From Schmidtea polychroa (Eukaryota), in contig CM097885.1 of NCBI GenBank assembly GCA_044892525.1, positions 19,408,001-19,472,000 on the forward strand: DNA of 64,000 nt. The letters run 5' to 3'. A model generated the notes under the pieces. The model made no database searches, was not told the origin of the DNA, and was given only the letters and a program-made list of their open reading frames with translations. Below are positions 56,538-57,205 of this stretch, piece after piece. Within the stretch, counting starts at the first letter, position 1, and the number at the start of each line of letters is the position of its first letter. Made by a program: the position numbers and the translations under genes.

Positions 56538-57205
56538 CCAAGGTCAAATTTAAACAAAGACATATGACTCATCAAGGTCATTGAAACAAAGACCATGACT
56601 CATCCTATGACTCATCAAATTTCTCAAGGTCATTTAAAACAAAAACCATGACTCATCCTATGACTCATCAAGGTCATTTTCAAGGTCATATGACTCATAA
56701 TATGACCCATCAATGTCAAAATTTTTTCAAGGTCATTTAAACAAAGACCATGACTCATCAAGGTTATTCTCAAGGTCATATGACGCATACTATGACTCAT
56801 CAAGGTTATTTTCAAGGTCATATGACTCATCCGATGAGTCATAAAAATTTTCAAGGTCATGTAAACAAAGGCCATGGCTCATCCAAGGTCATTCGCAAGG
56901 TCATATAACTCACCCAAGGTCATTTTCAAGTTCATATGACTCATTCAAGGTCATTCACAAGGTCATATGACTCATACTATGACTCATCAAGGTCATTCTC
57001 AAGGCCATATGACTCATGCTATGACTCATCAAAAATTTCCCAAGGTCATTCTCAAGGTCATATGACTCATACTATGACTCACCAAAAATTTTCAAGGTCA
57101 TTTTCAAGGTCACCTGAGTCATCCTATGACTCATCAAGGTCGCATGACTCATCCAAGGTCAGTTGCAAAGTCATATGAGTCATCGCGATGAGTCATCAAG
57201 GTCAT
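56538..57205 (+). repeat. Complex tandem array of TGA(C/G)TCA and CAAGGTCA motifs
   Basis: Manual count: ~22 TGACTCA/TGAGTCA, ~21 CAAGGTCA and several AAACAAAG. Confidence 0.95.

Follow-up and report, generated by a model that had tools for sequence, protein, structure and literature searches.

Why should the end of a mobile element carry, within 668 nucleotides, some 40 predicted binding sites for two classes of host transcription factor? The question is raised by a motif array in a 64,000-nt stretch of the Schmidtea polychroa genome (the window; ~27% GC, from a genome of 781 Mb with contigs of 93-272 Mb). We describe the array and the element that contains it, compare it with other copies and with sister families, and weigh what it may do. 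Published sources are cited for their accessible sections.

Composition and setting of the array

The AP-1-type cores of the array (56538-57205), 22 sites of the form TGA(C/G)TCA, comprise 18 TGACTCA and 4 TGAGTCA, of which 20 extend to ATGA(C/G)TCAT and 17 to ATGACTCAT. The receptor-type core, CAAGGTCA, occurs 21 times on the plus strand (0 on the minus strand), 14 times within the longer word TCAAGGTCA, and two minor words recur, four AAACAAAG and three TAAACA. Dinucleotide shuffles (n = 2,000) contained on average 0.21 TGA(C/G)TCA and 0.12 CAAGGTCA, with a maximum of 3, and the 63 kb of the window outside the array hold only 4 and 2, respectively. The motif density claimed by an initial annotation of this DNA, and the enrichment over shuffled sequence that it proposed as a check, are therefore borne out for both main motifs. 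Its phrase ‘made almost entirely’ of such sites is too strong, as the cores cover 53% of the stretch, and the single orientation that it reported holds for the receptor site but has no meaning for the AP-1 site, which is a palindrome. It had also set the array apart from a simple satellite; the spacers do vary and the motifs are real, but Tandem Repeats Finder does recognize a degenerate tandem repeat (periods 31, 42 and 53; matches 69-88%). The array is a modular minisatellite built of motifs, and a motif array too. Its units are direct-repeat modules of 9-12 nt in cycles of ~31, 42 and 52 nt, with near-fixed start-to-start distances: 12 nt from AP-1 to AP-1 site and from receptor to receptor site, 10 nt from receptor to AP-1 site, and 8-9 or 17 nt from AP-1 to receptor site.

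As the initial annotation had supposed, the array lies inside a terminal inverted repeat (TIR). It begins 110 nt within the left TIR of a 12,304-bp Maverick/Polinton copy, which runs from an AGTAG end at 56428 to a matching end at C1:19476731 and is flanked on both sides by a 6-bp target-site duplication, ACAATG (Table 1). An inverted-repeat search of the window returned ATT runs only, missing the TIR because the right end lies outside the window; beyond the window are a major-capsid-type gene, a protease gene and the right TIR, with 11 AP-1 sites and 12 CAAGGTCA. The TIR measures ~1,260 nt in an intact sister, whereas the left and right ends of the window copy are similar over only ~880 nt.

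Table 1. Features at the left end and in the body of the Maverick/Polinton copy, in window coordinates.
Feature	Position	Strand	Remarks
Left target-site duplication ACAATG	56422..56427	+	same six bases after right end, C1:19476732
Outer left TIR	56428..56537	+	AGTAG end, two 16-nt repeats (56440-56472), 16-C run (56475-56490), AT-rich stretch
Motif array	56538..57205	+	22 AP-1-type and 21 NR5-type cores, 4 AAACAAAG; 10.4-bp phasing
Inner TIR	57206..57690	+	extent by intact sister; AT-rich repeats, ATT run 57351-57569, 25-nt word 57592-57616
128-aa coiled-coil ORF, nearest left TIR, transcribed towards TIR	57803..58189	-	
TBP-like protein of the element	60620..61057	-	Pfam PF00352, E 6.8e-15
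A32-type packaging ATPase	61157..61783	+	Pfam PF04665, E 8.7e-07
Small basic ORF	61926..62324	+	without Pfam match; presumably core-protein-like
Integrase with chromodomain	62311..63498	+	broken by a stop and an ATT-repeat insertion in the window copy
ORF in minor-capsid position, start only, split in the window copy	63438..64000	+	without Pfam match

The window element is a deleted, polymerase-less Maverick/Polinton copy: several of its genes are broken, and both a polymerase and the large polymerase-position ORF of its sisters are absent from it. Its interrupted retroviral-type integrase is 96% identical to that of a sister in which rve (E 1.1e-05, below the curated cut-off) and a chromodomain were matched; the ATPase (PF04665) and an adenovirus-type protease (PF00770, matched in the sister) are both present in the window copy. 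In the place of the polymerase, sisters carry a 1,335-aa ORF that has no Pfam match at E 0.01 and that, from its position and size, we take to be PolB. The 406- and 355-aa ORFs in capsid position, conserved across families and likewise without Pfam match, are presumably, by position, the major and minor capsid genes. Transcription of the genes adjoining each TIR runs towards it in the intact sister, and the array is therefore not a proximal promoter.

Other features of these elements were observed alongside. The TBP-like gene (60620-61057, minus strand) is 100% identical in one sister family and ~62% identical in two others, and the 25-nt word of the inner TIR, common to families with different arrays, has 9,120 genomic occurrences (none for the control). 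A small ORF (58283-58603, plus strand; counterpart L026:2874-3194) has a weak Bcl-2-family score (E 0.003, below the cut-off), and a RING-finger gene adjoins the other TIR in intact sisters. C-rich runs follow AGTAG in most families examined; opposite the 16-C run near the tip of the window copy (56475-56490) a G-quadruplex is possible. At 18 kb from the array, a host gene candidate (37348-38269, plus strand) encodes C2H2 fingers (Pfam zf-C2H2), which we assume to be of KLF/Sp type; this gene would be the candidate for any local effect of the array.

Copies of the array: load, variation and helical phasing

The first 22 nt of the window element occur 1,583 times in the genome, and in the family that it represents (AP-1+NR5) a perfect 6-bp duplication is found in 27 of 33 adjacent end pairs. 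From the first 100 ends listed we used 90, which lie without exception within the first 36 Mb of C1. The median end carries 19 AP-1 sites and 18 CAAGGTCA, and at least five of each are present in 79 of the 90, with fewer than five of one motif in the other 11; 86 distinct module orders occur among the 90 ends, and one end (L046) is without an array despite an intact target duplication. Genome-wide counts are 97,461 for TCAAGGTCA (control 3,031) and 67,878 for ATGA(C/G)TCAT (control 2,876); extrapolation from 90 of the 1,583 ends attributes ~25,000 and ~26,000 of these, respectively, to the AP-1+NR5 family, whose arrays would hold an estimated quarter to two fifths of the perfect genomic sites.

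Cores and spacers were compared in an anchored test, in which two outer motifs were fixed and all sequence between them was read, so that the middle motif was unselected. Middles with at most three mismatches were kept (250/463, 212/463, 120/194, 403/751 and 348/751 in the five designs used), those discarded having 4-8 mismatches and representing the other module order; one further design (2/194 kept) was excluded from the column comparison. Across the 90 ends, a second base reached at least 10% in none of 30 core columns versus 9 of 17 free-spacer columns, with mean minor frequencies of 0.023 and 0.177. Counting unique columns, the difference is 0/12 versus 5/7 (Fisher p 0.002, an optimistic value as copies and columns are related). 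The spacers include one exception, two of the three bases 3' of the receptor core being fixed like the core itself. Motifs are thus better conserved than spacers, a comparison that the initial annotation had proposed as a check.

Within the AP-1 core TGA(C/G)TCA only the centre is free (C 85%, G 14%, other 1%; n = 1,674 sites). The base before the receptor core is C or T (C 11%, A+G <1%), the base ending the site is A or G (G 5%), and YCAAGGYCR fits 1,614 of 1,732 receptor sites; at position 7, C, A and G are about equally frequent (2-4% each), the consensus C not being favoured. The five common variants at degenerate positions are those permitted by published consensus sites, although C/T and A/G are the commonest mutations and a flip of the palindrome could give C/G without selection.

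When the two ends of one insertion are compared (24 of 27 pairs; one skipped for a short alignment, two dropped for few motifs at one end), NR5 cores differ by 1.7%, AP-1 cores by 2.5%, spacers by 4.5% and flanking TIR by 1.25%. No protection of the cores after insertion was seen in these 24 pairs, the cores changing at least as much as flanking TIR DNA, so the constraint presumably acted on active elements. The excess in spacers fits exchange between modules; within a single insertion, hundreds of bases often distinguish the left array from the right one. Some copies of the family have a second, inner array of CAAGGTCA only, at 38-41-nt spacing (L126:1648-1971).

Distances between like sites peak at 30-31, 42, 51-52, 62, 73, 81-83, 92-93 and 104-105 nt. 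In 70 arrays, both motifs have a power of 0.61 at 10.4 bp, whereas 100 resamplings of module order gave 0.10-0.13 and never more than 0.19; over the range of 6-45 bp the highest peak falls at 10.4 bp, also in the window copy. Cycle lengths fall within 1.5 nt of a multiple of 10.4 in 294 of 392 cases, where chance predicts 29%. The same period suits a sister family with a 21-nt unit as well as a ROR-type family, in which 12 of 18 spacings agree with it; two families, with spacings of 13-14 and 27-28, are unphased at 10.4 bp. Such phasing fits proteins on one helix face or a set nucleosome position, the arrays representing few independent events on account of their shared ancestry.

Sister families and candidate readers

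Sister Mavericks with AGTAG ends have closely related integrase, ATPase and major-capsid-type genes, and polymerases that are 55-80% identical; between two families differing in both array and polymerase type, the integrase, ATPase and TBP-like genes are 97-100% identical. One family (AP-1+CRE, 175 ends) carries 8-16 AP-1 sites and a CRE, with a target duplication in 9/9 pairs. A group marked by TTACGT(A/C)A (1,302 pattern matches) has a few AP-1 sites and a target duplication in 4/8 pairs; some of its members have a short form of the AP-1+NR5 array instead, and others have WWNTAGGTCA sites, 12 of them in one end, and no AP-1 site. The latter sites are of the ROR/Rev-erb type, defined as AGGTCA 3' of an AT-rich run (PMC4022472). 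Paired sites of this kind number 2,691 versus 119 in the control; at C1:2.21 Mb the ROR-type element could not be traced to its true tip. In the CRE family, CRE replaces AP-1 behind the same AACAAAGACATA word, and a mixed family (L331:382-1400, C1:9628182) has an end with AP-1, ROR-type, NR5 and CRE sites. A further family, without blastn similarity to the window end, has a single TCAAGGTCA ~30 nt from the tip at 30/30 loci; the 15-nt context of this site matches 1,225 times in the genome, and a target duplication was found in 1/5 pairs.

Site counts exceed all 500 shuffles in five of six ends, that of the CRE family merely equalling the maximum, and motifs cluster in the terminal 1-2 kb in 7/7 mapped elements. 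Because several sister arrays are homologous at their start, we read their differences as turnover of a shared frame and not as full convergence. Where one family has other sites than the next, these still belong to the bZIP or monomeric nuclear-receptor classes; in two families, the words repeated most often (TTTTAGAACGATGCC-type and TTACGTTGCGG-type) contain no nameable site.

These families also yielded several individual observations. In a CRE-family end (L270:406-1300) TTACGTTGCGGT is repeated at 27-28-nt spacing, and we take its TGCGGT to be RUNX-like. The L331 Maverick is 16.7 kb long, with two inverted polymerase-type genes and a repeated word, CCATAGCAAC, which is presumably RFX-like. 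A 13-kb near-palindrome (L302-L303, C1:77501-90800) has one TCAAGGTCA near each end and, among 12 query proteins, matches only to two inverted polymerase-type genes. A 13.9-kb element (L266-L267, C1:1069173-1083032) has Maverick ends and a target duplication but no match to the 12 element proteins, and has kept its bZIP sites, with 3 AP-1 and 7 TTACGT(A/C)A per end. Mavericks are nested in Mavericks (L260-L261, L308; L123), in one case the AP-1+NR5 family inside a ROR-type polymerase gene and in another a different family beside a capsid gene. The interval C1:434598-448204, considered as a possible LTR element, proved to be a duplicated Maverick end.

Which proteins could read these sites? Host frames encode Jun-like and Fos-like bZIPs, a ROR/Rev-erb-like fragment, and an NR5-type DNA-binding domain with an ESCKG P-box and an FTZ-F1-like extension (best PDB match SF-1, E 4e-32), which we assume to be closer to NR5B/HR39. 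The NR5 domain lies at C2:159884029, and the Jun/Fos pair at C3:56224892 and C2:17317395. No bZIP or C4 finger was found by Pfam in the 10 window ORFs, nor in 14 scanned of the 41 stop-free frames of the intact sister, where spliced or very short genes could escape; genome-wide, domain matches number 13 for bZIP and 53 for the C4 finger, not hundreds. The TGA(C/G)TCA sites agree with the published TRE, TGACTCA (PMC13513840), and are likely candidate Jun/Fos (AP-1) sites. The receptor site matches the FTZ-F1 consensus YCAAGGYCR (PMC7239656) and is likely of NR5/FTZ-F1 type, with NR5 as the candidate reader and ERR or NR6 types also possible; a schistosome FTZ-F1 binds the SF-1 element (PMC8673669). 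Planarian fos-1 and jun-1 are wound-induced (PMC5515462), and a term look-up in the accessible text of three planarian chromatin papers (PMC11398382, PMC9522251 and PMC10558129) found AP-1 unmentioned. In planarians, Polintons are piRNA-silenced and rank with the elements that SMEDWI-2 restrains most tightly, yet their H3K4me3 and RNA rise during differentiation (PMC8532177); the available part of that study attributes tissue specificity to chromatin change around insertions, not to sites borne by the element.

Possible roles of the arrays

Clusters of host-factor sites in the ends of viruses and transposons are already a known kind. Retroviral and ERV LTR U3 regions and herpesvirus immediate-early enhancers contain repeated host-factor sites that change in repeat number and whose family-specific vocabularies set cell type. 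The Maverick array shares with them repeated sites of host-factor type at or near element ends; however, their arrays lie directly upstream of the main promoter, whereas the genes nearest the Maverick array end there, and a Maverick, unlike an LTR element, is a self-synthesising DNA element. The auxiliary origin of the adenovirus ITR has one site each for NFI and Oct-1 within ~50 bp of the tip. Adenovirus is a relative whose replication is protein-primed, and like its ITRs the inverted Maverick ends contain host-factor-type sites, but the Maverick array has ~40 of them at 110-780 nt from the tip, and only the single-site family has the ITR geometry. Baculovirus hrs, which act as enhancers and origins, are also repeat arrays (400-900 bp) that offer CRE and TRE to host bZIPs in variable numbers (PMC13513840). 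They differ in their 30-bp palindrome, in the viral IE1, in being dispersed in a circular genome and in being mostly CRE-like (PMC13513840), whereas the Maverick array lies in TIRs, combines near-perfect TREs with nuclear-receptor monomer sites, and is a putative enhancer. As its modules are direct repeats of 9-12 nt instead of 30-bp imperfect palindromes, the array may at most work like an hr, and is not one.

The 6-bp duplication, AGT-type end, integrase, ATPase, protease, capsid-position genes and putative sister polymerase are shared with vertebrate Mavericks/Polintons, and the TIR of ~1,260 nt falls inside their range of 46-1,447 bp (PMC8097293). Unlike the vertebrate elements described there, the window copy is polymerase-less and has broken genes, and its lineage has a TBP-like gene. 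The accessible part of that description covers end motifs and TIR length but no host-factor site arrays, and reports that Maverick particles had not yet been observed (PMC8097293). We found no description of host-factor arrays in Maverick TIRs in open-access full text, and supplements, Repbase or subscription papers may hold one.

The array is real, non-random and under constraint, and its likely function, as predicted from its motifs, is that of an enhancer. Specifically, we consider it probable that the array is a cluster of predicted host Jun/Fos and NR5 (FTZ-F1/HR39-type) sites and, as an enhancer, would serve the genes of the element itself. Host factors would load on one helix face at both ends and, presumably, open chromatin there; enhancer action, placed at a distance because the terminal genes point towards the TIRs, would then start early transcription in cells with both AP-1 and the receptor, after which later genes may be under the control of the TBP-like protein that the element encodes. 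Site number would change, and so be tuned, as modules slip or exchange unequally, selection on active elements would preserve the cores, and families would differ in vocabulary and hence in the cell state used. Inserted copies would be held down by piRNA silencing and then decay. The initial annotation is upheld as far as predicted host-factor sites under selection in an active element are concerned, a conclusion supported by the constraint, the TIR setting, the host Jun/Fos/NR5 proteins and the sister swaps; its suggestion of an influence on nearby host genes finds no support, the inserted cores changing at least as much as flanking TIR DNA.

The main rival to an enhancer of element genes, although an unlikely one, is that host-factor binding to the array, like that of NFI and Oct-1 in adenovirus ITRs, chiefly opens the ends, for excision, integration or protein-primed replication, and does not serve transcription. 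It accords with the position of the array, 110 nt from the tip at both ends and 3' of the terminal genes, no gene starting beside it; a role at the ends would also account more easily than transcription for the bZIP sites retained by the gene-less 13.9-kb relative and for the TCAAGGTCA of the single-site family, ~30 nt from the tip at 30/30 loci, and baculovirus hrs are both enhancers and origins (PMC13513840). However, ~40 sites over 670 nt, with vocabularies that differ by family, resemble expression tuning more than a core origin, gene-less relatives may merely have inherited their ends, and the single-site family has a duplication in only 1/5 pairs. Also counting against an enhancer are the 11 of 90 ends with fewer than five of one motif and the array-less L046 with its intact duplication, and the unnamed repeated words and the tracking of polymerase type by array type fit a family-specific element protein. 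That the repeats are sites for such a protein (the N-terminal polymerase region, for instance), with their host likeness due to chance, seems to us improbable: array type does change with polymerase between two families whose integrase, ATPase and TBP-like genes are 97-100% identical, and some words of sister families lack a named host match, but the scanned element ORFs yielded neither a bZIP nor a C4 domain, variation falls where published consensus sites are degenerate, and swaps are confined to bZIP and monomeric nuclear-receptor classes.

A neutral, unstable minisatellite whose unit contains both words by chance and is homogenised by slippage would explain the tandem repeat found by Tandem Repeats Finder, the 86 module orders among 90 ends, and the frequent difference of hundreds of bases between the two arrays of one insertion. 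Such a repeat should vary in cores as in spacers, contrary to the 0/30 versus 9/17 variable columns, and it leaves unexplained both the site-class swaps and a phasing beyond that of module shuffles; we regard this explanation as quite improbable and largely refuted. Still less do we expect that arrays are kept as co-opted enhancers of host genes, which is very improbable given the lack of post-insertion protection (cores 1.7% and 2.5% versus flanks 1.25%), even though arrays supply an estimated quarter to two fifths of perfect genomic sites and a C2H2 finger gene lies 18 kb from the window copy; co-option at single loci is possible. Barely conceivable, finally, is a His-rich repeat peptide, in which modules would read Met-Thr-His and Gln-Gly-His: although the reading frame is kept between 2,196 of 2,874 neighbouring modules (76%) and the receptor core varies most at a third codon position, the frame test rejects it, with a median of 9 frame shifts per array (minimum 4; 12 in 42 steps in the window copy) and 0/72 arrays stop-free over 90% of their length.

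Taking the predicted enhancer as the preferred explanation, we tentatively propose that Maverick families with near-identical virion and integrase genes may divide host cell states among themselves by means of swappable, helically phased cassettes (AP-1+NR5; AP-1+CRE; PAR/ATF; ROR/Rev-erb), the AP-1+NR5 family perhaps being triggered by wound-type AP-1 signalling in NR5-positive cells, and that together these elements may account for most perfect AP-1/NR5 sites in the genome. Analyses of motif enrichment and of AP-1 or NR5 ChIP in the planarian host should take account of these repeats. What activates animal Mavericks, and in which cells, can now be approached through the candidate triggers that the arrays suggest, using the RNAi, ATAC and single-cell methods available for planarians; the arrays could also explain, at the level of sequence, the tissue-specific activation of transposons described in PMC8532177. 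If they are indeed enhancers, the ends of these elements would be host-controlled switches that set when and where the element wakes.
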